Positions 1,324 to 15,809 of a DNA stretch of 15,809 bases are shown one piece after another. Within the stretch, counting starts at the first letter, position 1, and the number at the start of each line of letters is the position of its first letter. The stretch covers positions 1-15,809 of the forward strand of contig JBJCIZ010000458.1 in NCBI GenBank assembly GCA_051294375.1. Direction: 5' to 3'. Below the pieces are notes generated by a model, which made no database searches, was not told where the DNA came from, and was given only the letters and a program-made list of their open reading frames with translations. This DNA is from Paraspadella gotoi (taxonomy: Eukaryota > Animalia > Chaetognatha). The position numbers and the translations under genes were made by a program.

Positions 1324-4089
1324 ATGGAAAGTTTTTTCGATGAAGATAAGAATGTTAGTGAACGTGGTATTCGAGTTTTTGTTTATCAATTAAATAAAGA
1401 GTTGATCGAATTTATTAATAAGTATAAAAGAGCCCAAGAAGGTCCGTCTATTGAAACTGTTAATGTTGTTGAAGGTGCCCGTGATCACGTTCGTAGATTG
1501 CATACTGTTTTAACTAAGTTTATTAAAAGGCACCCTGAGTTTGAATCTAAAAAGGTTTTTAGTATTCTAAGTAAGACCGAGAGTCAATCTGTGCCGTATA
1601 TTTTAAATAAATATCCGCCGTTACCCGTTCCGTCGCGATCCGTCCGTTCGAATATGGACAATAATTTTGAACAGTCAGGGGGAAGGGATGAAGGGAATGA
1701 AACTGAAAGTGATCTTATTGTCGTAGAAGGTCCCGTTGTTTTGTCTTCCCAGTTAGAACCCAATCCTGTTGCACCATCGGCCCAGGCCGATGATATTTCG
1801 CCCGATCTCGATCCTCTTCCTCCTCCTCCTCGTATTGATTTAACACGAGAACGATCTTCTGCTGTCGAAGCAGCAGAAAACGCGCCAGTTCGGAGTCGGT
1901 CCGTGTTATCGACGCTTGCTAACGTTTCTGCGCATTTATCCGCTCTGGGAAGAAGTCGACATTCTTCGCCAAATGAGACGGTAGTGTCTGAAGTATCACC
2001 TGATGCTCGTCCGGAAAATCTATCTCAAAGGTTAGTAGACAAAGAACGAACTCGTAGAATTCGACGTTTAGAAATTGAACGAAAAAAGGCTCATTTAGAA
2101 AAGTTGATTAGAGAAATCGAAATTGCTGAAATTGAAGAAGACGCAGAAAACGAAATGACTTTGAATGAAAGGCAATGTAAAGGAAATGAAACTAATTTGA
2201 ATGCTTCGACCAGATCAAGGAATGGCGGCGCCGCGCGGAGAGCTTACAATGAATCCGTCTACGATCGAGTTTGCGGAGTAGGAACGACTTCGACGACAAA
2301 CGTGATGACCACGGTGAGTTGCGAAAAGGGTGGGTCTGGCAGTTTATTAAAGGGATCGTCACCGTTATCGAAGATCAGTCCAAAAGGTTTGACTGTTAAT
2401 ACGAATGATGCTAATTCGACGCCCGCACTGGTTCCATCAGTCGTCCCGATTTCGAGTCGTTCACGTTTAGAAACTGTGCCTAAGATCGTTGCTCGTAGTT
2501 CACCACAAACTGAACAGATTTTGTCTGGGGGGGGAGAGATTGAGATACCAAATGAATCCGTCCCGGCTCCAGTCATTCGACAACCGCCGAGAATGTCAAG
2601 GAGTGTTCCTAATGTGTTGAATCGTATCTCTGCACAAAATCAAAATGTTGTAGGACAGGGAAAGGTTGAAAACATGATTCCCGCGAATTTTTTGGGCAAT
2701 CCATTTAGTGCCTACCCAGCATTTAATCCATATTTTGCCTACCCACAGTGGTCGACTCCTTCACCAATGCATTTCCCAAACCAAGCACAATCGCCACAGA
2801 CTTCTGTTGCAAAGGTTAGCGTCTCACCCAATACACCGTCGGTGGCGCCAGCTGTTTCAAATCGTAATTCTCCGGTCCATAATGCAAATTCCACTCGCGA
2901 GAGGCCGTGTCCAAATTCTATTGTGGGAGAAACTTTGGGTGATTTTGGTGAGGATAGGGACAAGTTGACACAACTCTGCACTATCCAGATCCAGCAGCAA
3001 GCATTAAGCATGATGAGGCAACGTAGGCCCAAATTAAAATTTAATGGGCGTGACAAAAGGGTCGATTTTGAATCTCAACTGAACTTGTTTAATTCTCTGG
3101 TCAATATTGCTGGAGTGACTGACCAAATGATGATGAATGAATGTAAGGAATATTTTGATGGAGATGCCGCTATAATCGTGTCCCAACATGAAGCCTCTAG
3201 CGATTTCACTGATGCTCTAAAGAAAGTTAGGAAGGCTTTAAAGATAGAATTTGGTAGAAAAACGTATAATGCCCATCAAATGTTGGAAGAGTTGCTAAAG
3301 GGTCCTAAGATTTCTGATAAAGATTTTACTGGGGCTAGAACGTTTGTTCTTGAGATGGAAAAGTTTCATGTGAGGGCTAAGGAGACTGGTAGGGAGTTGA
3401 CTTTTTCAACTCAGGAGACATATAAGGAAATTATCTCTAAGAAGTTGCCTTTTCTGGCTGCTTGGGTGGCAAGAAGAATGGTTGATAAGGAATGGGAAAA
3501 GATGAAAAGTGATGATGATGATGGATTTTTTGACCTTGAAATGAAATTCGAAGATTTTATTGATTTTGTGAAAAAATCTGTGAAAATCAATGAGAGAAAG
3601 TCAGCCTTGTTGGGAAGTCGAGATGCTGTAACGACAAGTGCACCAATTTCTACCACACAATCCAAACCGACGAACACCTTTCAACGAAATCCAATTCGTT
3701 TTGCCGCAACTGCTGTTTCTTCTAACCCACGCACCCAACCCGTCTTGTCAACTCGTACATCTGGAGCTGCAAAAGTAACGAATATTGCTGCAGCATCTTC
3801 TTTTCCAAATCCAAATTCCAACCCAAACAACCATGCACCGCGAAATGCATCAACCTCGAAATGCCGATTTTGTGAGCAAAATCATCACACTGGCAATTGT
3901 AGTGATTATTTGGCGCTTGATCATGAAGCTAAGGTGACATGGTTAAGAGAAAAGGCTTTGTGTTTTTTGTGCTTTGGTCATGGACATGTTGCTAAGAATT
4001 GTCTTCGGATGTTGGGTTGTTCAAAATGTAGTGGGAGGCATCATGTATCACTTCATCAGGTGACTACCACCCAGGTTGAATCATCCTGA
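1324..4089 (+). CDS. gag: Gag, 921 aa: long S/P-rich N-terminal half, BEL capsid-like region (from KFNG..., about 3037), three C-terminal Cys/His knuckles
   Basis: Uninterrupted ORF. CRFCEQNHHTGNC (from 3862), CFLCFGHGHVAKNC (from 3961) and CSKCSGRHHVSLH (4018-4056) give the Cx2Cx3Hx4C / Cx2Cx4Hx4C / Cx2Cx3Hx4H triplet characteristic of BEL/Pao Gag. Confidence 0.93.
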   Translation: MESFFDEDKNVSERGIRVFVYQLNKELIEFINKYKRAQEGPSIETVNVVEGARDHVRRLHTVLTKFIKRHPEFESKKVFSILSKTESQSVPYILNKYPPLPVPSRSVRSNMDNNFEQSGGRDEGNETESDLIVVEGPVVLSSQLEPNPVAPSAQADDISPDLDPLPPPPRIDLTRERSSAVEAAENAPVRSRSVLSTLANVSAHLSALGRSRHSSPNETVVSEVSPDARPENLSQRLVDKERTRRIRRLEIERKKAHLEKLIREIEIAEIEEDAENEMTLNERQCKGNETNLNASTRSRNGGAARRAYNESVYDRVCGVGTTSTTNVMTTVSCEKGGSGSLLKGSSPLSKISPKGLTVNTNDANSTPALVPSVVPISSRSRLETVPKIVARSSPQTEQILSGGGEIEIPNESVPAPVIRQPPRMSRSVPNVLNRISAQNQNVVGQGKVENMIPANFLGNPFSAYPAFNPYFAYPQWSTPSPMHFPNQAQSPQTSVAKVSVSPNTPSVAPAVSNRNSPVHNANSTRERPCPNSIVGETLGDFGEDRDKLTQLCTIQIQQQALSMMRQRRPKLKFNGRDKRVDFESQLNLFNSLVNIAGVTDQMMMNECKEYFDGDAAIIVSQHEASSDFTDALKKVRKALKIEFGRKTYNAHQMLEELLKGPKISDKDFTGARTFVLEMEKFHVRAKETGRELTFSTQETYKEIISKKLPFLAAWVARRMVDKEWEKMKSDDDDGFFDLEMKFEDFIDFVKKSVKINERKSALLGSRDAVTTSAPISTTQSKPTNTFQRNPIRFAATAVSSNPRTQPVLSTRTSGAAKVTNIAAASSFPNPNSNPNNHAPRNASTSKCRFCEQNHHTGNCSDYLALDHEAKVTWLREKALCFLCFGHGHVAKNCLRMLGCSKCSGRHHVSLHQVTTTQVESS

Positions 4090-4178
4090 CTCGCGGCAGC
4101 GTATGCGACGACGGGGGCGTTTCGACCAATTGTGCCATTGGTTGTTTCCAACGGTCTGAGACGCGTCGTCACATACGC
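4087..4178 (+). promoter_or_regulatory. Putative stop-codon readthrough signal: UGA-C, 9-nt spacer, extended stem-loop
   Basis: TGA at 4087-4089 is followed by C. Pairings read by eye: 4099-4105 GCGTATG/CATACGC 4172-4178; 4107-4112 GACGAC/GTCGTC 4165-4170; 4117-4123 GCGTTTC/GAGACGC 4158-4164 (one G-U); 4124-4127 GACC/GGTC 4153-4156. Confidence 0.75.
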
Positions 4179-7100
4179 AATGATGGATAGCGGCGCTACA
4201 AGATCCGCTGTATCATCTAGAATAGTCTGTGAATTAGGTTTAGAGCCATATACATTATTTACAAATCTCTCTACATATAATACTGTTTCCCAAGCTTGGC
4301 GAGACTTCGTTGATTTAAAAATCTCAACTCTTGATGAATCTTTTTCTAAAGAAGTGAATAAAGTGCTTGTGGGTGATATATTGACCACAGAAAGTGATAA
4401 GCCATGTCGTAATGAGGATATTTCTGATTATGAGTATATGAATGGAGTTATTTTTGATGAGTTAGATCATGAGGATGTTGAGTTAATTCTTGATGCTCGT
4501 TTAGCCTCAACATGGGTAGGGGGCGAAACCAGAGTTGGTCCTGAAGGGTATCCCATAGCTCTTAAGACAAGATTTGGTTGGACGTTAGTGGGAGCCAGTG
4601 AAAATGAGACTAAGGATCAGATTAGTTGTTGTTCTAGTATCTCAGAATTTGATAAGCTTGAGTTTATGATTGCCTCTATGTTCCGTCATGATTTTATCCT
4701 CAAGGGAGACGAACGTTATCCCTCAGAAGTTCAACATGCTTCTTGTCAGGATTCGTATGCAATTGAGCAGTTGGAACAACAGACATATTTTAATGAGGAG
4801 ACCGGCCATTACGTGGCTCCGTCACCTTGGAAGAAGGGCAGGAGTAAAACTGCTGAGTTGTTTGAACCACTGTATAAAGACGTGGCAGAAAATGCAAAAA
4901 GCAGAGCTAAGAAAACAGCCAATAAGATGAGAAAGGATCCAGTTCTTAAGGAAGGTGTTTTTAAGACTATGAAAGAGACTGTTGAGATGGGTCATGCTAG
5001 AAAGGTAGTTGAAGATCATCCACCTAAAGGAATCCCTGAATATTTTGCTCCTGTCCATGTAGTGACGCGACCGGACAAACCCGGAAAATTTCGGATTTGT
5101 CAGGATGCGGCTACTAAGGTGAAAGGCTCAAGTCTTAATGATTACTTAATCCCTGGTCCAGATAATTTGACGCCTTTGATAGGAATTTTATTAAAATTTA
5201 GAAGGAAAAGAGTGACGTTGGCAGGGGATATAAAATTATTTTTTCATCAAATAGAGTTACATCCTAATGACGTGGCTGCCTTTAGGTATTATTGGTATAG
5301 TGATGAAACCATGAAGGTTTTAGAAAAACATGAGCCCTTGGTTCACGTATTTGGTGGGGCAGGAAGCCCAGGGGTTGCTAATTTTATCCTTCAATACCAT
5401 GCAAAAGCAAATAAAGATGTGTTCTCACCTGATGTTTTAATGGCTTTATATTTAAAATTTTATGTTGATGATTTTATTGATTCGCTTGATGGAGTTAAGC
5501 AGGCGCGAAAAATGAGAATAGATATTATTGAAGCCTTAAAAAAGGGAGGTTTTGATATTGGGAAGTGGAAAAGTTCTGACGAACGTGCTTTACTTGATTT
5601 TTCAGTTGACGGAGAAGACGATCCTTGCCACGACTCTATCGCCACCCTGATCGACTCCGCTTCTCCAGATAACGCCGAGGATCTCACGGATGATCTTGAG
5701 AGAGTAATCGACAATGCCCTCCCTGATAATCCCACCCTTGATGAGCAAGATAACAAGGTATTGGGAGTTGGATATAATTTTCGTCGTGATATGTTTTTTG
5801 TAAGAATTTCTAAAAAATATGAAAAGGAGGCAAAGACTCGTCGTGATATCTTAAGTTTAGTCTCTTCCATGTTTGACCCCATGGGTCTTATTTCGCCTTT
5901 TATTTTAAAGGGGCGATGCTTTTTTCAAAAGGCGACTGATTTAAAACTAGAATGGGATGAGATGTTGCCTGAGGATTTGGAAAAGGATTTTAATTTTTGG
6001 CGTGTAAGCATTTTTAAACTTAAAAAATTGTTAATACCAAGATGGACCGCCGTGTTAGGTTTAAATGATTTTATTGCAAAACTGATAGTTTTTTGTGATG
6101 CTTCATCTGAGGGTTACGGCATGGCCGCGTATATTAAAAAAGAAAGTAAATGTGGAAAATTAAATCACGTTTGTCTATTATTTGCTAAGGCTCATGTTGT
6201 CCCTCTTAAGATGCAAAGAATGATTATCCCTGACCAGTTAGATCACGGAGATTCAATGCCCCGCCTTGAGCTGAATGCGGCAAGACTTGGTGCTCAGATG
6301 CGTGATATGATAGAGAGAGAATCTGGGGAAGTGTTTGAAACAGTTTTCATGATGACTGATTCTTTGACAGTATTGAGATGGATTCATGATTGGTGTAAAC
6401 GTTTCAAAACCTTTGAAAACTTTAGATTAAAAACAATTCGTTTACTTTCCAGGCCTACTGAATGGCGACATGTTCCGGGTGAGGAGAATCCGGCGGATCT
6501 TGCGAGCAGAGGCATCGACGCCGACGACGAGAAGAGTTGGTCTCGTTTTCATAAAGGACCCAGCTGGCTGAAGCAAGCTGAATCCGAGTGGCCTATGACT
6601 TCCGATCCAAACAAAGTCAAAAAGAAAAAAGGCAAAGTAGATCTTAAGGCCATTGACGAAGACAGCGCCTTCTCTCCGTCTGAGTTGGTTCTCTTAGGCG
6701 CTACTCGTGAGCATCCCGTAATGCCGGACTCTAAATTATCTACAGGTTGGGCTTTAAAAGTTACAAATAAACTGGAAAATTGGATAATGAAAGTTCGCCG
6801 AATTGCTTACTTTATAAATGCGGTTTTACGTTTTGTAAAATTTTTGGGAAAAAAGAAAAAAGCTGATGATAGTTTGTTTAAAAAAATTCGTTTGACGGCG
6901 CCCGAATTTTTAAATGCTGAAAAAATATTAATTCGGTCGGTCCAAAGATCACATTTTGAAAAAGAGATATTTTCTTTAATTAAACTAGGAGTTTCTTCCG
7001 CCGACGCTCACAAAGAGCTCCGCACACAAAGGTCTAAACTTGTTTCTTTGAGTCCCTTTGTCGATGAGATGGGTATTTTAAGGACTGGTGGTCGTTTAGT

Positions 7101-8283
7101 TAATTCTAGCTGTCTTAATTTTGATTCTAAATTTCCTATCATCCTTCCTAAAGACGACGAAGTGGTTAAATCTTTAATACGTTATGAACATGAAAAATTG
7201 TATCATGCTGGCCCAGCGGCGACTTACCATTCCGTACGTCAACGATTTACTATTTTAGGCGGACGAAGTGCGATTGATATTGTTGTCAGACGGTGTGTTA
7301 AATGTCAAAAATTATTTAAAAATAATTTAAGCCAGAAGATGGCTAATCTCCCGCCGGAGAGAGTAAATCTTTCGGTTCCATTTAAAAATTCTGGAATAGA
7401 TTGTTTTGGACCTTTTCAAATTCGTCTTGCTGGGAGGGGTCTGAACAAAAAATTTGTCTTGTTAATATGTTGTCTCGCTACACGTGCAGTAGTTTTTGAA
7501 CCATTAAAGGACATGTCGGCTCCGTCAGTCCTTAACGCATTAATTCGAGTAAAAAATTCTTTTCCAGGCATGGAATCGCTTTTCTCTGACAACGGCACTA
7601 ATTTCAAAGGTGCTGCAAACGATTTAAAGTCCCAACTTCAGGCGATTTGTAATGACGAAAAATTAAGCGAGGGAATCGCGGTGAGAGGAATCTCTTGGAA
7701 TTTCGGACCTCCGTATACGCCTCACGCAGGTGGGATTTGGGAACGCCTTGTACGTTCGGCAAAGAAACATTTAAAAGCAGTCATTCCAGATAATCTTGAT
7801 TATGATACCTTTAATACTATTTTAAGTGAAGTTGCCGGGATTCTTAACAGACGGCCTATTACGTTTGAGGCATCAGACCCTTTGGAACCTATTGTTTTAT
7901 CTCCACTTAATTTACTTTATCCTTATTTATATGCTCCTAGTTCTCTTACACTTTTACCACATGCTCCATCTGAAGGAGACATAATGAAGTCTACTTGGCG
8001 AAAAGTTCGTGAAGTAGCTGACGAGTTTTGGTTCCGATGGCGTGATGAATATTTGCCTTCCCTTCAGGCGCGAACGAAGTGGTTCCAATCGTCACCGGAT
8101 CTTCCAATCGGCGAAGTCGTTCTCATTGTTGACCCCACCGCGCCGAGAGACAGATGGCGCACAGGAATCGTTGTGGAAACGTCTGGAGAGGGTCCCCACT
8201 CGCGAGAGGCAATTGTTAAATTGCCTGACGGTCGAAAAATTCGTCGTCATTACCGTTCGCTTGTTTCGCTAGAACTGAATTAA
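4090..8283 (+). CDS. pol: Pol polyprotein (aspartic protease, reverse transcriptase, RNase H, integrase); probably translated as a Gag-Pol readthrough fusion 1324-8283 (2319 aa)
   Basis: The frame is open from immediately after the gag TGA. Motifs: protease DSG at 4186; RT LAGDIKLFF and YVDD at 5461; RNase H CDAS (D at 6097), PRLEL, TDS, NPAD; integrase H(7189)-H(7204)-C(7294)xxC and D(7399)-D(7588)-E(7741). The ORF-track GTG start at 4132 is unlikely to be real. Confidence 0.96.
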   Translation, partial: LAAAYATTGAFRPIVPLVVSNGLRRVVTYAMMDSGATRSAVSSRIVCELGLEPYTLFTNLSTYNTVSQAWRDFVDLKISTLDESFSKEVNKVLVGDILTTESDKPCRNEDISDYEYMNGVIFDELDHEDVELILDARLASTWVGGETRVGPEGYPIALKTRFGWTLVGASENETKDQISCCSSISEFDKLEFMIASMFRHDFILKGDERYPSEVQHASCQDSYAIEQLEQQTYFNEETGHYVAPSPWKKGRSKTAELFEPLYKDVAENAKSRAKKTANKMRKDPVLKEGVFKTMKETVEMGHARKVVEDHPPKGIPEYFAPVHVVTRPDKPGKFRICQDAATKVKGSSLNDYLIPGPDNLTPLIGILLKFRRKRVTLAGDIKLFFHQIELHPNDVAAFRYYWYSDETMKVLEKHEPLVHVFGGAGSPGVANFILQYHAKANKDVFSPDVLMALYLKFYVDDFIDSLDGVKQARKMRIDIIEALKKGGFDIGKWKSSDERALLDFSVDGEDDPCHDSIATLIDSASPDNAEDLTDDLERVIDNALPDNPTLDEQDNKVLGVGYNFRRDMFFVRISKKYEKEAKTRRDILSLVSSMFDPMGLISPFILKGRCFFQKATDLKLEWDEMLPEDLEKDFNFWRVSIFKLKKLLIPRWTAVLGLNDFIAKLIVFCDASSEGYGMAAYIKKESKCGKLNHVCLLFAKAHVVPLKMQRMIIPDQLDHGDSMPRLELNAARLGAQMRDMIERESGEVFETVFMMTDSLTVLRWIHDWCKRFKTFENFRLKTIRLLSRPTEWRHVPGEENPADLASRGIDADDEKSWSRFHKGPSWLKQAESEWPMTSDPNKVKKKKGKVDLKAIDEDSAFSPSELVLLGATREHPVMPDSKLSTGWALKVTNKLENWIMKVRRIAYFINAVLRFVKFLGKKKKADDSLFKKIRLTAPEFLNAEKILIRSVQRSHFEKEIFSLIKLGVSSADAHKELRTQRSKLVSLSPFVDEMGILRTGGRLVNSSCLNFDSKFPIILPKDDEVVKSLIRYEHEKLYHAGPAATYHSVRQRFTILGGRSAIDIVVRRCVKCQKLFKNNLSQKMANLPPERVNLSVPFKNSGIDCFGPFQIRLAGRGLNKKFVLLICCLATRAVVFEPLKDMSAPSVLNALIRVKNSFPGMESLFSDNGTNFKGAANDLKSQLQAICNDEKLSEGIAVRGISWNFGPPYTPHAGGIWERLVRSAKKHLKAVIPDNLDYDTFNTILSEVAGILNRRPITFEASDPLEPIVLSPLNLLYPYLYAPSSLTLLPHAPSEGDIMKSTWRKVREVADEFWFRWRDEYLPSLQARTKWFQSSPDLPIGEVVLIVDPTAPRDRWRTGIVVETSGEGPHSREAIVKLPDGRKIRRHYRSLVSLELN

Positions 8284-8709
8284 TTGAAAGTTTGGAAATG
8301 ACAACCAAACTTAGTTTGATAGAAACTTTCTATATTTGAAAGTTATTAAGAAACCAAATGGTTATTTAAATTGATTTTTTCTCTGAGTTATTCTGAGTTA
8401 AAAAATTAGTTTGCTATTTATTTTTCATTGAATTTACCTGTCCTTACTAAAATCGCCGTTCCGCTTTCATTTATATAGACAGATTTTAATTGAAACGATA
8501 ATAACTTCTCATTGAGAATACTTTGTTTGATCAACAAAGTTAGTTGAATTTGAAAGCCTATGTTGAAGCTAGTTGGATTGAATTTTTTTTATATGAATTT
8601 TTTTTTTAGTTTCAAATTTTTATTTTTTACTGCCGACGCACATTAATATTTATTTGTGGCACTTCGTCCTTGGTTATTCGTCGTTACGTTCTGCCGATCG
8701 ATCATTAAA

Positions 8710-8955
8710 ATGAGCCTTTCTCGTGAATTCGTTGAGAAGTTCTTTGCTCCGTCGGAAAGGGAAAAAAGAGTTTTCGTCTTGGGACTCGCGACGCGTAAGA
8801 GAACACGGTCAACTCCAGAGCTCAATAGGATCATGGAAGATATCAATGAAACGGAAAACGTGATGGTGGGCGTACCTTTACATGACCTTTGGATGCTCGA
8901 GCGAAAATTGAAGATTCAGTCCCAAGAGTTGGAAATAACAAGACTAAAATCGTAA
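8710..8955 (+). CDS. Small accessory ORF A, 81 aa, unknown function (MSLSREFVEKFF...)
   Basis: More GC-rich island between AT-rich spacers. Start context aaaATG, and it is the first ATG after the T-tract/AG at 8608-8609. AATAAA follows at 9027 and 9068. Confidence 0.65.
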   Translation: MSLSREFVEKFFAPSEREKRVFVLGLATRKRTRSTPELNRIMEDINETENVMVGVPLHDLWMLERKLKIQSQELEITRLKS

Positions 8956-9173
8956 TGGTTTTCGTCGTCGTCGTGGATGTTTGTTTAGTGTTTATGTTTC
9001 ATTTGATTCAAGTTTACAAATAACCTAATAAACAAGAATGAAAAGTAAAAAATCTATAATCAGCAGAAATAAAATTGTGTTTGTTTTTTTTTTCGAAAAT
9101 AATAATATATATTTGTTGTTGAACTTAATCGTTTCAGTTTGATTGCTAACTATTTTTAACTATTTTTTAAATC

Positions 9174-9256
9174 CGTGATCCGCTGCTCCATCTCACCGTC
9201 CTTTCTCTCATTACGTGATCCGCTGCTCCATCTCACCGTTCTTTCTCTCATTACGT
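9174..9256. repeat. Tandem duplication of a 40-bp unit (2 copies, 39/40 identical)
   Basis: CGTGATCCGCTGCTCCATCTCACCGT(C/T)CTTTCTCTCATTA at 9174-9213 and 9214-9253, followed by CGT. Confidence 0.97.
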
Positions 9257-9332
9257 TATACGCTGCACCGTTTGCAGTCCACTGCGCTGTTTCGCGATTC
9301 CCCGTTTCGGTACGCGATCAGTTTCATTGAAG

Positions 9333-9605
9333 ATGGCGGAACCCAAGAACAGCGGGCTGCATCGTTATCTGGTTTCTTTGGCGGTTCCAGATCACGCCAA
9401 ACAAAGGTTTCATGAGTTATACTCGCGGGTCATTTTGGCTAAGGAAAAAGAACTCTTTGAGATGATGGAGAGGATGGGAATTTCAAGAACAAGCTCCGGT
9501 CAGGTGCCTGCTGAATTTGTGCCGCTGTTTAAAGACTGGGAGCGTAAAGCCGAAGACGAACTCAATCACGAGATCGCGGAGTTCCTTCGGGATTTGGAGA
9601 AATGA
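9333..9605 (+). CDS. Small accessory ORF B, 90 aa, charged helical protein of unknown function (MAEPKNSG...)
   Basis: Start context aagATGg, first ATG after TTTCAG at 9137. Protein-like amphipathic composition, bounded by AT-rich spacers. Confidence 0.7.
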   Translation: MAEPKNSGLHRYLVSLAVPDHAKQRFHELYSRVILAKEKELFEMMERMGISRTSSGQVPAEFVPLFKDWERKAEDELNHEIAEFLRDLEK

Positions 9606-9731
9606 AGACGACGGAACATTGCATCTATTTGAACTGTTTTTACTGAGTACTATTTTTTAGGTTTAGTTAAAAATCAGTTGACCTAACGTGCCGTGGAATG
9701 ATTTATTTTTTAGTTTTTCTGGTCATCAGTC

Positions 9732-9929
9732 ATGTCGTCCAGCAATTTTCAAGTTGATCGAGATGGTGCTGAGGACGATAATGCCTCCGCAGCATTTGCA
9801 GTTTATATTGAACCTGGTGAAACATTGTCTTCTCAAGAAATCTTACAGTTGTTTCAATCTATTAGAAGGGGGATTTTGATCGCGCGAGAGGCAGAAAGGC
9901 AGCGAATTATTGATCAAAATGAAGAATAG
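9732..9929 (+). CDS. Small accessory ORF C, 65 aa, acidic, unknown function
   Basis: First ATG after TTTTTTAG (AG 9712-9713). The ORF fills the island and AT-rich sequence resumes right after the stop. Confidence 0.6.
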   Translation: MSSSNFQVDRDGAEDDNASAAFAVYIEPGETLSSQEILQLFQSIRRGILIAREAERQRIIDQNEE

Positions 9930-10218
9930 CTCTTTATATAAAGATTTATTGGTGCCTTTTATTATTTAGTGGTTCTATTCATCCACGGATAATATTTGAG
10001 TAATTTGAAAAGAGACTACTTATTTATCTGGCCTACAGATTAAATTATTAGGTCAATTATCTCGAACTTTAATTTTGAAATATTTGATTTAAATTTCATG
10101 TTCTTAATGAGGAGTTAATTATTTGTATTGTTAAACATGTAATATTTATTTCTTAAGCCTCCGTTGCAATCTACTTTGTTATTCGTAGTCTTAGTTAAGT
10201 AATAGTAACGTGATTGCC

Positions 10219-10470
10219 ATGGCTCAACGATTTGAGAGATTTTTTGAGTCCCTGGGAGAGGACGAGGCTGTGAGGCAGCTATTTGAAGAACGACGACTTG
10301 AAGCAAATGCTCAAGTCATTTCCGGCTTGGTTTATTCGCGAGAGGTTGAGTTCCAAGAAAATTACCTGTTACCTGAGATAGGCCCTCATCACGTATCTAC
10401 AGATTCGGCTGACGAAGAATCGTTGTCAAGAGAGCCTACCAGCCCAAGGAGAATTCGACTTCACCAATAA
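10219..10470 (+). CDS. Small accessory ORF D, 83 aa, unknown function (MAQRFERFF...)
   Basis: Strong Kozak context gccATGg, first ATG after TTTATTTCTTAAG (AG 10156-10157). Flanks are AT-rich. Confidence 0.7.
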   Translation: MAQRFERFFESLGEDEAVRQLFEERRLEANAQVISGLVYSREVEFQENYLLPEIGPHHVSTDSADEESLSREPTSPRRIRLHQ

Positions 10471-10542
10471 TTCATTCAAAATTTTGCATTGAATTTAATT
10501 TAGTATTTAAATTATTATTTTTTTTTTTTTTTTTTTTACAGT

Positions 10543-10629
10543 ATGAGTTCTTTAACTCCTAGAAAGCTGAATTTGTACTACCCGATTTATCACTTATTTC
10601 AGTTTGTTTTGTTTTCGCGAAGTTCATAA
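10543..10629 (+). CDS. Possible micro-ORF E, 28 aa (MSSLTPRKLNLYYPIYHLFQFVLFSRSS), or remnant of a longer gene
   Basis: ATG lies 1 nt after a strong acceptor-like site (T20-ACAG, AG 10540-10541). Too short for further support. Confidence 0.3.
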   Translation: MSSLTPRKLNLYYPIYHLFQFVLFSRSS

Positions 10630-11017
10630 CCAGTCGCATAATGCTACGTTTACCACTCTGATATTAATTTACATTAATTAGGCATAATCGTCGTCGTTTT
10701 TTCATTGGTCTCCTGCTCGGTTTTCTTGCGCTTGCCTGATCCTCTTCCTCTTCTCTCAGCTCCTCCTCATCCTCTTTTTGATCCTCCTCCTCTCTTTTTG
10801 CTCCTCTTCCTTTTTAAAAAACCAAGTTTGGGCACAAGCTTGTCAAGCTTTCATACGTTCACTTTATTCGAATCGTTTTCGTTTCGGTTAATTGAAATAA
10901 TAAGTTGAATTTAATATATTTTTTTTATTCCTTTCCTCGACGTTATTTACATAATTGATATTTTATTAAGCAAAGATATTCCAAGTTTTTCCTGACGTAC
11001 CTCATCGGGCTTCAAAA

Positions 11018-11626
11018 ATGAATGACTCTGAACTTCTTGGCTGGGCTTTAAATCGAGCGAACGCAGCCGCTCTAAAAGTTCGTAACACCAAGGCCTTTCT
11101 GCAAGAAGCCACGAAGGCGATCGATGCGATTGACGAGAGCCTTACTGCTACTAGGAAAATACTCGACCTAGGCATCAAAAGAATTGAGACTCGTCAGGAG
11201 GTAAGCATTAAATTAGTTGAAATTATGGGTTATCTTGTTCATTTTTTATTTTTAACTAGTTTAAGGTTATTCATTAAGTTATTACTTTAGGTCATTCGTT
11301 CTGCTAATCAGTCGGGAAATTATCCTCCGTTAATTACGTTCGACGATGATGATACCCCTAAAGTTAAACGTGGTTCCGTCAAAATCATTCCGTTGATCAC
11401 CAAAACACGAAAACCCACAAGCAACTTGGTCATGCCGCGATCTCCTTCCGTGCCCAAGTTAGAGGAACCGTTTAATCCGATTCCGTCGCTTATGGGACAA
11501 AAGCCAAAAACTGGGAATCAACTCTCAGAGAGTAACCGTAACGAGTACGTCCGCTTGCCAAAGAAGGCAGTGAGGCAATATAACCATGCTCCAAGCTCTG
11601 CTGGCCAAATTAAGCCAGACGCTTAA
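11018..11626 (+). CDS. Spliced accessory gene F, 172 aa: join(11018..11200, 11291..11626); N-terminal helical domain plus P/K/S-rich tail
   Basis: Donor GAG|GTAAGC at 11201, AT-rich 90-nt intron, acceptor TTACTTTAG|G at 11290. Phase-0 splicing joins the two track ORFs (11018.. and 11393..11626) into one stop-free frame. Confidence 0.8.
11201..11290 (+). other. Spliceosomal GT-AG intron, 90 nt
   Basis: Near-consensus donor and acceptor, strongly T-rich body, and removal restores a continuous ORF. Confidence 0.8.
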
Positions 11627-11802
11627 TTCAGGACAAACATTAGACTTCGTTGTGTGTTTCGTTTAGTAATTAGATTGTACCATTGTCACTTTGATACATG
11701 ATATTATTTTTTGTTAGTGTTGTTTGCGATGTTTGCGTCTCACTACGTTTTTTTTTTTTTTTTTTCTTTTCTCAGTTTATATGTTAAAGTTGATATAAAC
11801 TA

Positions 11803-12144
11803 ATGACGGTCGTTGCCTCATTACGATTAGCACAGTGGAAAGTTGATCTCGCTACGGACATTGCGGTCAAAGCGGGAATCCAAATGAAGATCGCGCGGAC
11901 GGATGATGAGAAGATAATAGCAAAGATTGGGTTTGCAGAAGCTGTGAGAATGCTGCAGGAAGCTAGCACCATGGCAGCACAGTCCTTTAATGACGTTGCG
12001 CTTGAGGATGTTGACGAGGATGTCCAGCGTTTAGAGACAATACTGCGGGAAAGGATCGAAACGGGTCATCAAGCACTTGACGATGCGTTAGGCTGGTACG
12101 AGGAAATACCCGCACTGGAACCGCTCGACGATTACGAGTCGTAA
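11803..12144 (+). CDS. Small accessory ORF G, 113 aa, Ala-rich helical protein with acidic C-terminus; paralogue of ORF I
   Basis: Follows T18-CTTTTCTCAG (AG 11774-11775). Ungapped alignment to ORF I gives 15 identities in the first 55 aa. Confidence 0.8.
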   Translation: MTVVASLRLAQWKVDLATDIAVKAGIQMKIARTDDEKIIAKIGFAEAVRMLQEASTMAAQSFNDVALEDVDEDVQRLETILRERIETGHQALDDALGWYEEIPALEPLDDYES

Positions 12145-12365
12145 AACTTAATAGTTAACTTGTTTAATGCCCAGTTCGTCGCATATCTTGTTAAACATCA
12201 GTATGTAACATACCTTGCATTAATTTGTTTGCTTTGGTGGCCTATGTTTTCCATAATACTGAAAGTTGATAGCTATTAAATTTTTTTTTTATTAAGATTG
12301 ACGAAACGATTTGAAATATTTGAGAATTTAAATTATTTCGTTGTATTATCATTTGGTAAATAAAC

Positions 12366-12602
12366 ATGACTCATGAATATTTGGATCGCGCTATCAATAT
12401 TATTTTAAAGACTCAAGCGTCCCTGAGAACTAGCACTGACGAATGGACTCGTGCAGTTATTTTAGAAAAAGTTAACACTGCTCTTAAACTTTTAGAGACA
12501 GCACGAGATACAGCTAGTCATTGTCCCGAATGTCAAAAGCGCCCTCTTGTGCAGAATGTAACGTCTGATCCAGTCCTTGCCGAAAAGTTTTCTAATTTTT
12601 AA
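12366..12602 (+). CDS. Small accessory ORF H, 78 aa, helical protein with HCPEC motif; probable paralogue of ORF I
   Basis: Start context aacATG, first ATG after T10-ATTAAG (AG 12295-12296). LDRAINII matches ORF I VERAINSI. Confidence 0.72.
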   Translation: MTHEYLDRAINIILKTQASLRTSTDEWTRAVILEKVNTALKLLETARDTASHCPECQKRPLVQNVTSDPVLAEKFSNF

Positions 12603-12706
12603 ATTGTTTGTGAAAATTATTTGAATTTCTGTGAATGCTAGTGTACTGGAGATTTAAACAATTGGTTAAAAATTTAATATTTATTTTAAGGTTTTATAAA
12701 TTTATA

Positions 12707-13033
12707 ATGAATACCGCGACGGTCGTATCACTCGCTATTGAAAAGGTTGAGAGAGCAATCAATTCAATAATTGAAGCCAGGGGAAAGTTGCTTTCTGCCG
12801 TAACTCCTGAGGAGCAAGTCGCCACGACGACGGCAATTGACCGGGCGGAGAGATTGACTCACGAGGCATCAAAGATAATCATTTCCACGATGGCGACGAT
12901 CGATCCACACGACGAAAGACTGTTCGAGTTCTGGGCTTCTGGGAATCGTGTTGTCAAGAAGTTGAATCAGGAGAAAGCGTTATTAGACGAGATGGTCGAC
13001 TTAAACAAAGATCGCGACGATATGATTAATTAA
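12707..13033 (+). CDS. Small accessory ORF I, 108 aa, helical protein (MNTATVVSLAIEKVERAIN...)
   Basis: First ATG after TTTATTTTAAG (AG 12689-12690). This start puts it in exact register with ORFs F and G. The 24 upstream codons in the track are AT-rich spacer. Confidence 0.8.
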   Translation: MNTATVVSLAIEKVERAINSIIEARGKLLSAVTPEEQVATTTAIDRAERLTHEASKIIISTMATIDPHDERLFEFWASGNRVVKKLNQEKALLDEMVDLNKDRDDMIN

Positions 13034-13263
13034 AACTTTCTACTAATGTTTTATTTAAGAAAACTCTTTAATATTTTCTTGTTGATTGTTTAAATCTATT
13101 TTTATGAATTTACAATGTTAAATTAAAAATTGTTTAGGTCATTTTTTCATTAATAAGGCCTGAGGGGCAAACTGATAATAAAACAATTCTTGGCCGAAAC
13201 GCGCGGCGATTACTTTAATAATATTGCAGTGAACTTTTCTAAAGATTAACTCTGAGTGGCACC

Positions 13264-14688
13264 ATGAGCGTAATTACTCCCAACCGGTGACATACTTTTT
13301 GGAGGGCTCACAGAAGACGAGCGATTAATGTTTGACCCGGATGAGCTCATTTGGCCGGACAACAAATCTGTCACGGAGTCCGAGATCGATCCCAGTCCAC
13401 GAAGAGGTGAATCAAGAATCCTCGCCTGCAAGCAAGGTACTTTGTATTGAAATTAAATTAACATATTTTTGGGAGAATTAACTCGGCATTGATCTTGATA
13501 CGTTTTTTTTAGGCCTTTGCCGATCAATTTTTGAATGTTAATGGCCGAAGACGATGCGCCCACCGGAAGGGCGGCTGAAGATTTACAACTGAACCAATTG
13601 TCTATGGTACGGAGATGAACGCCTCTTTGCCCCATCTTTCGTCTGTTCACCAGAGAAACAACAGATGTACCGTAACATTCGACGTGGCGCGTGGGAACGG
13701 ATTGCGATGCGCCGTGTGGTGGACACACCAGCAGTTCTGCGGAGTTTATTGGTCTTATAAACTCTGGAGAAAGGCCTATGTACTTTATAAATCGCTCGTC
13801 GCGTTTTTCCTCGGGAACCGTCAATGCCCCTTACGATGCATCCGGTCGGGTCTTCAAATTTCGTTGTGGACAGAGTGACAGACGCAGAGGAAAGTCTCCA
13901 AATTTTGTTCACGTGGCCAAGACTTCTCATTCGAATTCGTCAACAGAGGTTCAATATGTGGGCCAGTCTCCAGAAAGGCCTGCACCTTCGAGAAAGTCTG
14001 AACAATCTTCTGCTTGCCAAACCTTTTGGATGATGTCTCTTGGAAAGAATTGGAGAAAAAGATTGGAAAGTTAAAGAAGAAGCGGTGAGACACGAAGCCA
14101 TTAATGGAGAACTAAAAGAAAGAAAACGCTAAGATTGAAAAGAATTACAATGAAGAAATACAACGTCGACTGGAGGCTGAAATGAAAATAGACGTCATAA
14201 GAAAGGATGCTGACCAAAGAATTGACAAATTACAAAGACTTTGGAGCAAAGCCTTCAGTAAAGAAAAGACCCGGGCAGACGAGCAGAGTTTTTACTTGAA
14301 AAGGAGAGGAAACAAGTCATCTCTCAAAGTGAATTAGAAAAGAATAAAATTATTCAAAGATCTCGGTTCACCATTGCATCGTTCAGTCAATTTTGAATCA
14401 CGAGAATCCGCTTTTGGTTGGTCTCAGTTTGGGGAACAAGCCGATGTCCTGCCTCGTGACGGAATTTCCAGATTCGCGACCTCTTCGTTCAGCTCGCAGT
14501 TGGTTCCCTTTCATCCGCCGCCAGGCCAGGAACACTTGATTCATACGCCAAAGTTTGGGCCGCCTCAGCCGCGCCGCTTGAGGGAGTCTACTCCTTCTCC
14601 GGGGGATACACCTCCTCCTCCACCTTCTCCTCTTTTTTCTCCCAAAAGGCATCTGTCTAAATTTCGTATCGTAAAGCGTAAAAAGTGA
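13264..14688 (+). pseudogene. Larger frameshift-disrupted gene (J): probable 76-nt intron 13437-13512, coiled-coil segment about 14030-14350, proline-rich C-terminus ending in a basic NLS-like tail
   Basis: accATG at 13264, AAG|GTACTT donor and T8-AG acceptor. Protein-like segments alternate between + frames: KELEKKIGKL / KEEAVRHEAINGELK / KENAKIEKNYNEEIQRRLEAEMK (open 14116-14337) / RAEFLLEKERK / ...PPPPPSPLFSPKRHLSKFRIVKRKK*. The exact structure cannot be resolved. Confidence 0.5.
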
Positions 14689-14998
14689 ATTATTACACAT
14701 TTACTTTTTGAAAAGTAATATTAATCTTATAGCGTGTTTTTAAACACAAACAATCAAATTAAAGTTAGAAAATCCTTAGTTAATAATTTTTTTGAGATTC
14801 GCGAGTAAACCAGTTGATAATAAGATTTAGTTTGATTGTTATCGATTTGAAGCAATGATATTGTTGCGAAAATTTGAATTTTTTTTTATTTTTATTTGGT
14901 TCAGCGCGCGACGCTGATAGGTCGTAGAAACGAGATTTTACACAATTTTTTATGGGAATTGAATTACTCTTTGATGGATTCGTTGGAGCCTTGTCGAT

Positions 14999-15038
14999 GC
15001 TCTCTCTTTCGCTCGCTCTCTTTCTCTCTTTCTCTCTC
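14999..15038. repeat. Degenerate (TC)n microsatellite / GAGA-like tract
   Basis: GCTCTCTCTTTCGCTCGCTCTCTTTCTCTCTTTCTCTCTC read directly. Confidence 0.85.
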
Positions 15039-15809
15039 AAAACTGAATTTTATTTGCGGAACGGGTTTTATTAGTAAATACGGCAGACAGATTGACTATA
15101 ATACATAAATTATTTCAAATCTTGATAAGAAACATAGTTTCTTAAATATTTATTTTGTGATACTTGCGTATGAATTCACGAAACCTCGGATATGAGGTTA
15201 AATATTATTTGAATAGTGAAAGTTAAAACTTTGTACTATCTGAAACAAAACTGAAACCTTCATAATAAGGTTATATTGAGCGAAATTATAAAAATTTCGG
15301 AATTGAAAGTTGTTATAACTTAGTTTCGTTTGAACTGCAGTCCTATATTGAACCACAAAGATAGGTGGTAAAATTATACGTGTGACGACACGTTTTCTGA
15401 ATCTCGGTGACGACTGGGATAATAATTTATCTGCCGATTATTACATTTATTATTAAAGATTGTGTCCCGGGCAACACGGTCAGTCATTTAAAATTGTTTG
15501 ACACTGGTTAGTGTTTAATAAAGATAAGAGATTAAGAAAATTAAAAATTAAATTATTGATTTCTCTATTATCTTTACGGAAAGCGAGTAAATTAGTAGTT
15601 CTTGTTGGATTGCTTTAATTTGGCGAGTTAAGTTGGTAGTTCTTAATTTTTTTAAGACATACGCAGTTTGATAATGTAAATAATGATTGAATTGGATGCC
15701 TTTACAATATTAGTAAAGCTTACGATTAATCAATTTATACGTAATGTTGATATTAGTATTTGATTACTCCAAGAATTTAATCTGTTGTTTGGATTATTAT
15801 TCACTAGTC

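Follow-up and report, generated by a model that had tools for sequence, protein, structure and literature searches.

The window examined here, 15,809 nucleotides (nt) of contig JBJCIZ010000458.1 from the chaetognath Paraspadella gotoi (assembly GCA_051294375.1), contains a BEL/Pao long terminal repeat (LTR) retrotransposon in which an LTR, gag, an in-frame TGA and pol are followed by an array of small genes. The RNA of this element is cis-spliced. An earlier reading, made from the sequence alone, had pointed out that almost every small open reading frame (ORF) of the array lies behind its own T-tract and AG, as a splice acceptor would. It suggested that one LTR-driven transcript is resolved into separate mRNAs by cis- or trans-splicing, or else that the genes have internal promoters. 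The element is real and unusual; the mechanism described below for its small genes is a proposal. Coordinates refer to the window, and features are on the plus strand unless stated otherwise.

The 5' LTR (698-1082) is 385 bp long, within the 0.2-1.2 kb expected of LTRs, and has TGTTA...TAACA ends. One public sequencing run, X1, matches 81% of the sampled words; it was taken as RNA by guess and consists of contigs that carry no strand. [quoted passage not shown] The second copy is therefore located beyond the window end and not within it. Together with the TGTTA...TAACA ends it identifies 698-1082 as an LTR and gives the element a size of about 16 kb. Two other runs, X2 and X3, match the window on repeats only.

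The gag-like ORF (1324-4089) encodes 921 aa and ends in a TGA in frame with pol. At its C-terminus three Cys/His clusters are visible by eye, which we take to be knuckles of the gag type. A single relative was found for it, at 32% identity, and Pfam gave no match. An acceptor-like AG at 1320 precedes the gag ATG by 3 nt and lies behind four upstream ATGs. The pol region (4090-8283, with the ORF also given as (4090)4180-8283) is of BEL/Pao type. Its Pfam domains are in the order protease, reverse transcriptase, RNase H, integrase (PR-RT-RH-IN, the gypsy order) and include PF05380 (Pao peptidase_A17, 1e-30), PF17921 and PF18701 (an integrase zinc finger and DUF5641) and a weak RVT_1. PF05380 is present in all 73 pol relatives found. 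The TGA-CT at the end of gag (4087-4092) is in frame with pol, and the same context occurs in each of the three related loci that show the junction (L001, L002 and L003), so pol is likely reached by readthrough of this stop. As a feature of the clade, TGA-CT would be a conserved readthrough signal.

The array begins after pol. ORF A (8710-8955, 81 aa) follows an acceptor-like AG at 8609, ORF B (9333-9605, 90 aa) one at 9137, ORF C (9732-9929, 65 aa) one at 9713, and ORF D (10219-10470, 83 aa) one at 10157. Site E (10515-10629) is a long T-tract with an AG at 10541; the first ATG behind it, at 10543, opens only 28 codons (10543-10629), which do not look coding and have G at the first codon position with a frequency of 0.04. 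Gene F (11018-11626, AG 10970) consists of two in-frame exons, 11018-11200 and 11291-11626, and would encode 172 aa if the predicted intron 11201-11290, whose donor has 7 of 9 consensus matches, is removed. ORF G (11803-12144, 113 aa; AG 11775) has a 5-codon upstream ORF (uORF) at 11781. ORF H (12366-12602, 78 aa; AG 12296) and ORF I (12707-13033, 108 aa; AG 12690) come next, and the array closes with a long gene J (13264-14688, AG 13157), which has a predicted intron at 13437-13512 and several frame changes. The array holds 9 ATG-initiated ORFs of at least 60 codons on the plus strand and 2 on the minus strand; shuffled sequences had a mean of 1.7 and a maximum of 6 in 1000. When a codon model was trained on gag-pol, the annotated frame was best for B, C, D, both exons of F, G, H and I, and was not best for A and E. 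By these measures eight small genes look real and coding-like, while E is doubtful.

Splicing of the element RNA

Four GT-AG joints are found across gag-pol in X1. They connect 2313 to 5606, 5757 to 6453, 6745 to 7568, and 7729 to 8068 (the raw positions of the last three are 5755 to 6451, 6742 to 7565, and 7726 to 8065). A probable fifth, also GT-AG, lies within the LTR (883-946). Since X1 shows such joints in gag-pol and, probably, in the LTR, the element RNA is cis-spliced. Canonical joints show that splicing occurred, yet X1 might hold DNA copies of spliced RNA. The run has no cover at 1083-1581 and 2636-3162, and these holes carry no weight. Removal of the first intron (2314-5605) leaves a 344-codon ORF of the gag N-terminus. 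Three small internal exons then occur in pol, at 5606-5757, 6453-6745 and 7568-7729, after which the acceptor at 8067/8068 opens onto the array of 3' genes. Small exons and acceptors within pol are a trait of alternative splicing of the complex-retrovirus kind. The donors used are weak, with 5 to 7 of 9 consensus matches. Between them the four joints (2314-8067) take out most of gag-pol, and an AATAAA at 6766 is placed 20 nt past the 6746 donor. Joining of the pol exons also gives a 187-codon ORF, which was discounted because most of it is in the pol frame.

In X1 the LTR joint is recorded as 883 to 955, and the six intervening letters match 948-953. The joint fits removal of a 64-nt GT-AG intron at 883-946, whose ends were read from the sequence. 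The part of the LTR ahead of this intron, 698-882, is free of ATG (P=0.02, post hoc). It is a candidate for a common leader exon with a probable donor at 883.

The 10 nt directly behind the LTR (1083-1092), where a primer would bind, are complementary to 947-956 inside it (P=0.001 in shuffled LTR). For self-priming elements the relevant passages of PMC6317226 give a stretch of at least 10 nt that starts 0-5 nt after the LTR and is complementary to it, and the pair 947-956/1083-1092 has this form. No TGG, as a tRNA primer site would have, follows the LTR, judging from the window sequence alone. The predicted self-primer (947-956) is also an arm of a hairpin at 933-957. The LTR intron ends exactly where the self-primer starts, and in unspliced RNA the primer forms an 11-bp hairpin with the 3' end of the intron. 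In RNA folding from four starts, the self-primer pairing was 0.81-0.96 in every case once the LTR intron was taken out, and 0 in every case when it was left in. The fold from start 947 depends on the 3' limit chosen: pairing was 0.012 for RNA to 1130, versus a paired minimum-energy structure for RNA to 1110. Self-priming gated by splicing is thus a possible arrangement suggested by folding, and is offered as a lead only. No such case in BEL/Pao was met in the literature searched.

Acceptor-like sites and expression of the small genes

All nine AGs listed in the sequence-only reading, A to I, end at the positions given there. Its rule that the ORF starts at the first ATG after the AG holds for A, B, C, D, F, H and I (seven of nine), and G has the short uORF it described; the rule breaks down at E, where the first ATG leads into the 28 codons mentioned above. 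The AATAAA hexamers at 9027, 9068 and 13177 are present, as are initiator-like motifs (TCAGTT, TCAGTC and TCATTT) just before the ATGs of B, C and H. Two features had been overlooked, namely the second exon of F behind its predicted intron and a tenth acceptor-like site (13157) ahead of the broken gene J.

Acceptor-like sites in the array are strand-biased. When non-GAG acceptors in 8581-13265 were counted by the number of T in the preceding 20 nt, there were 9 sites with at least 12 T on the plus strand and 1 on the minus strand (9:1), compared with 1 and 1 in gag-pol. At a threshold of at least 10 T the counts were 21 and 6 in the array and 12 and 14 in gag-pol. The nine sites of the list are therefore a choice among 21 plus-strand sites. 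Against background of matched composition the sites fare unevenly. In spacer shuffles that keep T-richness, two sites are exceptional individually, A at P=0.008 and H at P=0.004, as is the placement of the sites taken jointly, while the others are not. An acceptor-like site with no later ATG occurs in 7 of 8 spacers (P=0.003). In 6 of 9 spacers, with 2.4 expected, all ATGs of the spacer lie 5' of its top-scoring acceptor, chosen blind to the list (P=0.013). After the chosen AGs there is 1 ATG against 9.1 expected, a partly circular figure as the AGs were picked by eye; before them there are 19 against 27.9. The placement pattern is real but modest. By a simple acceptor score A-I reach 8-14 and the five used acceptors 8-11, and sites that score at least as high as used ones should be seen by the host spliceosome.

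We tentatively favour, with somewhat less than even confidence, a mechanism in which each small gene is made the first ORF of its own mRNA by alternative cis-splicing of an upstream leader to its own acceptor. A scanning ribosome would require each small ORF to be near the 5' end. A leader lacking the gag start could be 698-882 with the donor at 883, or could end at a donor at 1278 that was read by eye. The layout would suit a single leader serving a ladder of acceptors, namely 946, 1320 and A-J, with A-I in use (E doubtfully so). The joints seen in X1 step through the three small pol exons to the acceptor at 8068, which lies shortly ahead of the array. All mRNAs would have a common 3' end within the 3' LTR. 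Each spliced form would be a small share of the RNA, as is the case for the accessory genes of complex retroviruses. The array probably grew in part by cassette duplication (G, I and perhaps H), and the products are likely to be small, helical proteins with host-interacting or regulatory roles. Precedents for extra genes expressed by splicing are the five-exon CERV mRNA of Cer1 (passages of PMC10309623), env of Tor3a (passages of PMC4402516) and the ORF3s of bdelloid elements (passages of PMC5408684).

Several observations count against this mechanism. The four gag-pol donors are all downstream of the gag ATG, so that mRNAs using only these donors start with a gag-fragment ORF. The LTR donor at 883 is joined only to 947, and in a contig that carries on from the element's 3' end; 698-882 may be absent from transcripts of the 5' LTR. 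The pol-internal splice sites are kept at 1 of 7 aligned places in L001 and 1 of 2 in L002, so by this comparison the splicing within pol may be incidental, cryptic or peculiar to this element. B, C, D, F and I do not beat the spacer shuffles singly (P=0.24-0.28), and G fails through its uORF. The letter G comes after the AG at 1 of 9 sites, against a spacer background of 9 of 89, whereas 4 of the 5 acceptors in use have it (P=0.02, post hoc). The idea that an LTR transcript is resolved by splicing stands as regards the LTR element and its spliced RNA, but none of the nine AGs has a joint among the X1 joints listed, even though a joint of contig depth 3 was retained elsewhere. Single X1 contigs are unspliced across A, B and C (8065-10038), F (10546-11680), and H and I (11809-15652), and D, E and G fall between the X1 contigs listed. 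The same contigs retain the two best predicted introns (11201-11290 of F and 13437-13512 of J). The missing joints neither confirm nor refute use of A-I and are weak evidence against it, because X1 contigs keep predicted introns, lose rare forms, trim short leaders and carry no strand; the loss of rare forms and short leaders is what the way contigs are assembled would lead one to expect.

A less probable alternative is an operon-like mode. Here spliced-leader trans-splicing would cut an LTR-driven precursor into single-gene mRNAs at A-I, and at 1320 in the case of gag, and the 3' ends would be formed in the spacers. The leader-plus-ladder layout suits this nearly as well as cis-splicing. From 8068 to A strong unpaired donors are lacking, and a single weak one is found at 8539. 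The AG shortly before the gag ATG, behind its four upstream ATGs, is what trans-splicing would use, and the lack of cis joints at A-I in X1 fits this mode; short leaders would not survive in contigs. In Schistosoma, trans acceptors are more U-rich than cis acceptors (passages of PMC5832876). B, D and J have a poly(A)-type hexamer some 100-120 nt ahead of their acceptors. This last point, which the sequence-only reading had offered in support of operon-type processing, loses force when the whole array is considered, as a hexamer precedes the acceptor in just 4 of 10 intervals. Trans-splicing would also require a host leader RNA, and the working upstream cis donors of the element would compete with it. 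Processing at A-I would, moreover, presumably cut genomic RNA that is needed whole.

Somewhat more doubtful is a promoter for each small gene, with the T-tract and TCAGT/TTAGT/ACAGT or TAAG marking the start, possibly with short introns in the 5' untranslated region. TCAGT occurs 7 times in the spacers versus 2.8 expected, and TTAGT 12 times versus 7.9; (TC/TT/AC)AGT is found at 5 of 9 sites, and GC content goes up after the AG at 8 of 9. Internal promoters are compatible with the missing X1 joints, and env of Tor3b/4b is driven in this way (passages of PMC4402516). Nine independent promoters in the 100-550-nt spacers of one retroelement have no precedent in the literature searched, however, and the long T-tracts at A, E, G and H fit acceptors better than start sites. 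Promoters of the baculovirus TAAG type were rejected, as TAAG is not enriched (9 versus 11.5 expected).

It is improbable that the sites merely reflect spacers that are T-rich and untranslated, with the ORFs translated from a long RNA through re-initiation or being captured genes in decay: the abundance of plus-strand sites with at least 10 T (21), the five listed sites that do not beat composition shuffles, the X1 contigs unspliced across six sites and the lack of a coding-like ORF at E would all fit, but the joint placement tests (P=0.003-0.013) and the intact ORFs A-I with their coding bias (A and E not best in the annotated frame) do not, and scanning past at least 19 spacer ATGs and whole ORFs would be implausible.

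Known elements with extra genes

Members of the Belpaoviridae, as defined by the International Committee on Taxonomy of Viruses (ICTV), are 4.2-10 kb long with one to three genes, a gag-pol that is continuous or overlapping, a primer site whose 18 nt pair with tRNA-Arg or tRNA-Gly, and a polypurine tract ahead of the 3' LTR (PMC8742986); in the present element the position of such a tract is past the end of the window. One to three genes and tRNA priming are thus what is already known for BEL/Pao. The P. gotoi element resembles this group in its Pao-type pol domains in PR-RT-RH-IN order, its 385-bp LTR and the putative C-terminal knuckles of gag. It differs in its size of about 16 kb, its complement of at least 10 genes, the in-frame TGA between gag and pol, and the self-complementary stretch that replaces a TGG after the LTR. 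Because the element departs from the ICTV profile in its size, its number of genes, the way gag meets pol and its primer site, it is classed by its pol as BEL/Pao-type and not as a typical belpaovirid. Long BEL/Pao elements are on record; for example, the Flow elements reach 16,272 bp, with no gene array described in the passages of PMC3118150 consulted. Unnamed BEL clades also exist in plankton, according to passages of PMC5029228, PMC6238403 and PMC13524379. No BEL/Pao element that combines about ten extra genes, multi-exon splicing and a likely self-primer was met in the literature searched, a partial sample consisting mostly of passages, without supplements or repeat databases.

Extra genes expressed by splicing or from a promoter are already known in Cer1, Tor and bdelloid elements, as far as the passages cited describe them. 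Like Cer1 of C. elegans (PMC10309623, in part), the present element is an LTR retrotransposon with multiply spliced RNA and the gag N-terminus in a spliced product. Cer1, as described there, is gypsy-type and has one extra protein, in contrast to the 344-codon gag truncation and the many separate small genes found here. Tor elements of Oikopleura offer a second parallel, an extra 3' gene being expressed by LTR splicing in some classes and from an internal promoter in others (PMC4402516, in part), two of the modes weighed above for the array. In these passages Tor has gag, pol and one env, whereas no ORF of the present array matches a known family.

Accessory ORFs beyond gag-pol are likewise known in giant gypsy and retroviral elements, such as Burro/GYPSM1, Ogre, the foamy-like endogenous retroviruses of fish (passages of PMC6431247) and Retand (passages of PMC11963269). 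In the parts of these sources cited, such elements are gypsy-type or retroviral and their ORFs have large recognisable domains or are antisense. The P. gotoi array differs in that its orphans are 65-113 aa long, are read in the sense direction and are each preceded by an acceptor-like site of their own. It shares with the spliced-leader operons of Schistosoma (PMC5832876, in part) genes on the same strand, spacers that are short and U-rich, and an acceptor-like site ahead of every start. It differs in that no leader was read and in being part of a retroelement that depends on the survival of its full-length RNA. With the self-priming elements Tf1 and Sushi (PMC6317226, in part) it has in common 10 nt directly after the LTR that are complementary to a stretch of the LTR. 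Unlike these, it has a BEL/Pao pol, and its primer starts at an acceptor; according to the folding prediction, a hairpin masks this primer as long as the LTR intron is retained.

Taken as a whole, a speculative picture, which we regard as possible and no more probable than operon-like trans-splicing, is of a BEL/Pao lineage turned into a complex virus-like element. An ATG-free LTR leader would be spliced, or a host leader trans-spliced, onto ten acceptors ahead of orphan mini-proteins whose number grew by duplication, and the LTR splice would free the self-primer and so gate reverse transcription. If true, a BEL/Pao group would have independently reached the expression complexity of complex retroviruses, with about 10 extra genes, multi-exon splicing and a likely self-primer. 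The orphan mini-proteins would then be candidates for new antagonists of host defence. Use of a host leader would make it a mobile element with an operon of its own that it resolves through trans-splicing.

Small proteins, pol relatives and other features

Protein searches with B and G found no relatives, and a single 26-residue match of I in a repeat protein was judged spurious. Pfam gave nothing below E 0.03 for 12 small frames and nothing convincing for 10 further frames. Fold searches with I returned no match at E 0.001 in viral and PDB libraries and were generic in outcome. Within the array, G and I share 14 of 54 residues in a gapless alignment (best-offset P=0.003 among 21 pairs). Each, folded alone, is predicted to be a three-helix bundle, with predicted local distance difference test (pLDDT) scores of 82 and 78 and nearly equal helix bounds. 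Because of this gapless likeness and the near-identical helix bounds, G and I are likely paralogues that arose by cassette duplication. The support comes from the gapless test and the models; gapped pairwise comparison of 13 frames gave no significant paralogy (best z 3.0 of 78 pairs). H is a possible paralogue of I (gapless P=0.013, uncorrected). The suggestion that F belongs with G, H and I was rejected by the pairwise likeness test.

The scans of the window with Rfam and for tRNA gave 0 matches each. A tree (FastTree) was made from the window pol and 36 of the 73 pol matches, picked for near-full coverage. In it the window pol falls in a 19-row clade with a local support of 100, apart from all named animal elements. 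The clade otherwise consists of metagenomic proteins only, none a named element, and the nearest pol relative is 45-46% identical to the window pol. The closest of these relatives are encoded on contigs of 10-19 kb. BEL/Pao elements have been described from animals (PMC8742986). A metagenome scan for related loci found 4, none of which extends more than 158 nt past pol, and none was found in viral contigs or in GTDB. The metagenomic proteins P0001-P0023 form a well-supported BEL/Pao pol clade; many begin at the protease, and their contigs are at most 18.8 kb long. One cluster member is labelled as coming from a bacterial bin, and is likely a stray contig.

Some smaller features of the array may be added. 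The leader of ORF B has a 40-nt tandem duplication (9163-9242). Between E and F a 49-codon open frame on the minus strand (10667-10813) has no starting ATG and would encode an acidic and then a basic stretch; the run of T at E may belong with this frame instead of marking an acceptor. In the 3' tail, 14869-14904 has a strong T-tract and CAG (16 T) with no clear ORF behind it. The X1 contig 11809-15652 differs from the window by 40 gaps and 4 other letters. Because the differences are mainly gaps, the frame changes in gene J may be indel errors in the window sequence. Gene J has Cys/His, coiled-coil, proline-rich and basic-tailed stretches.

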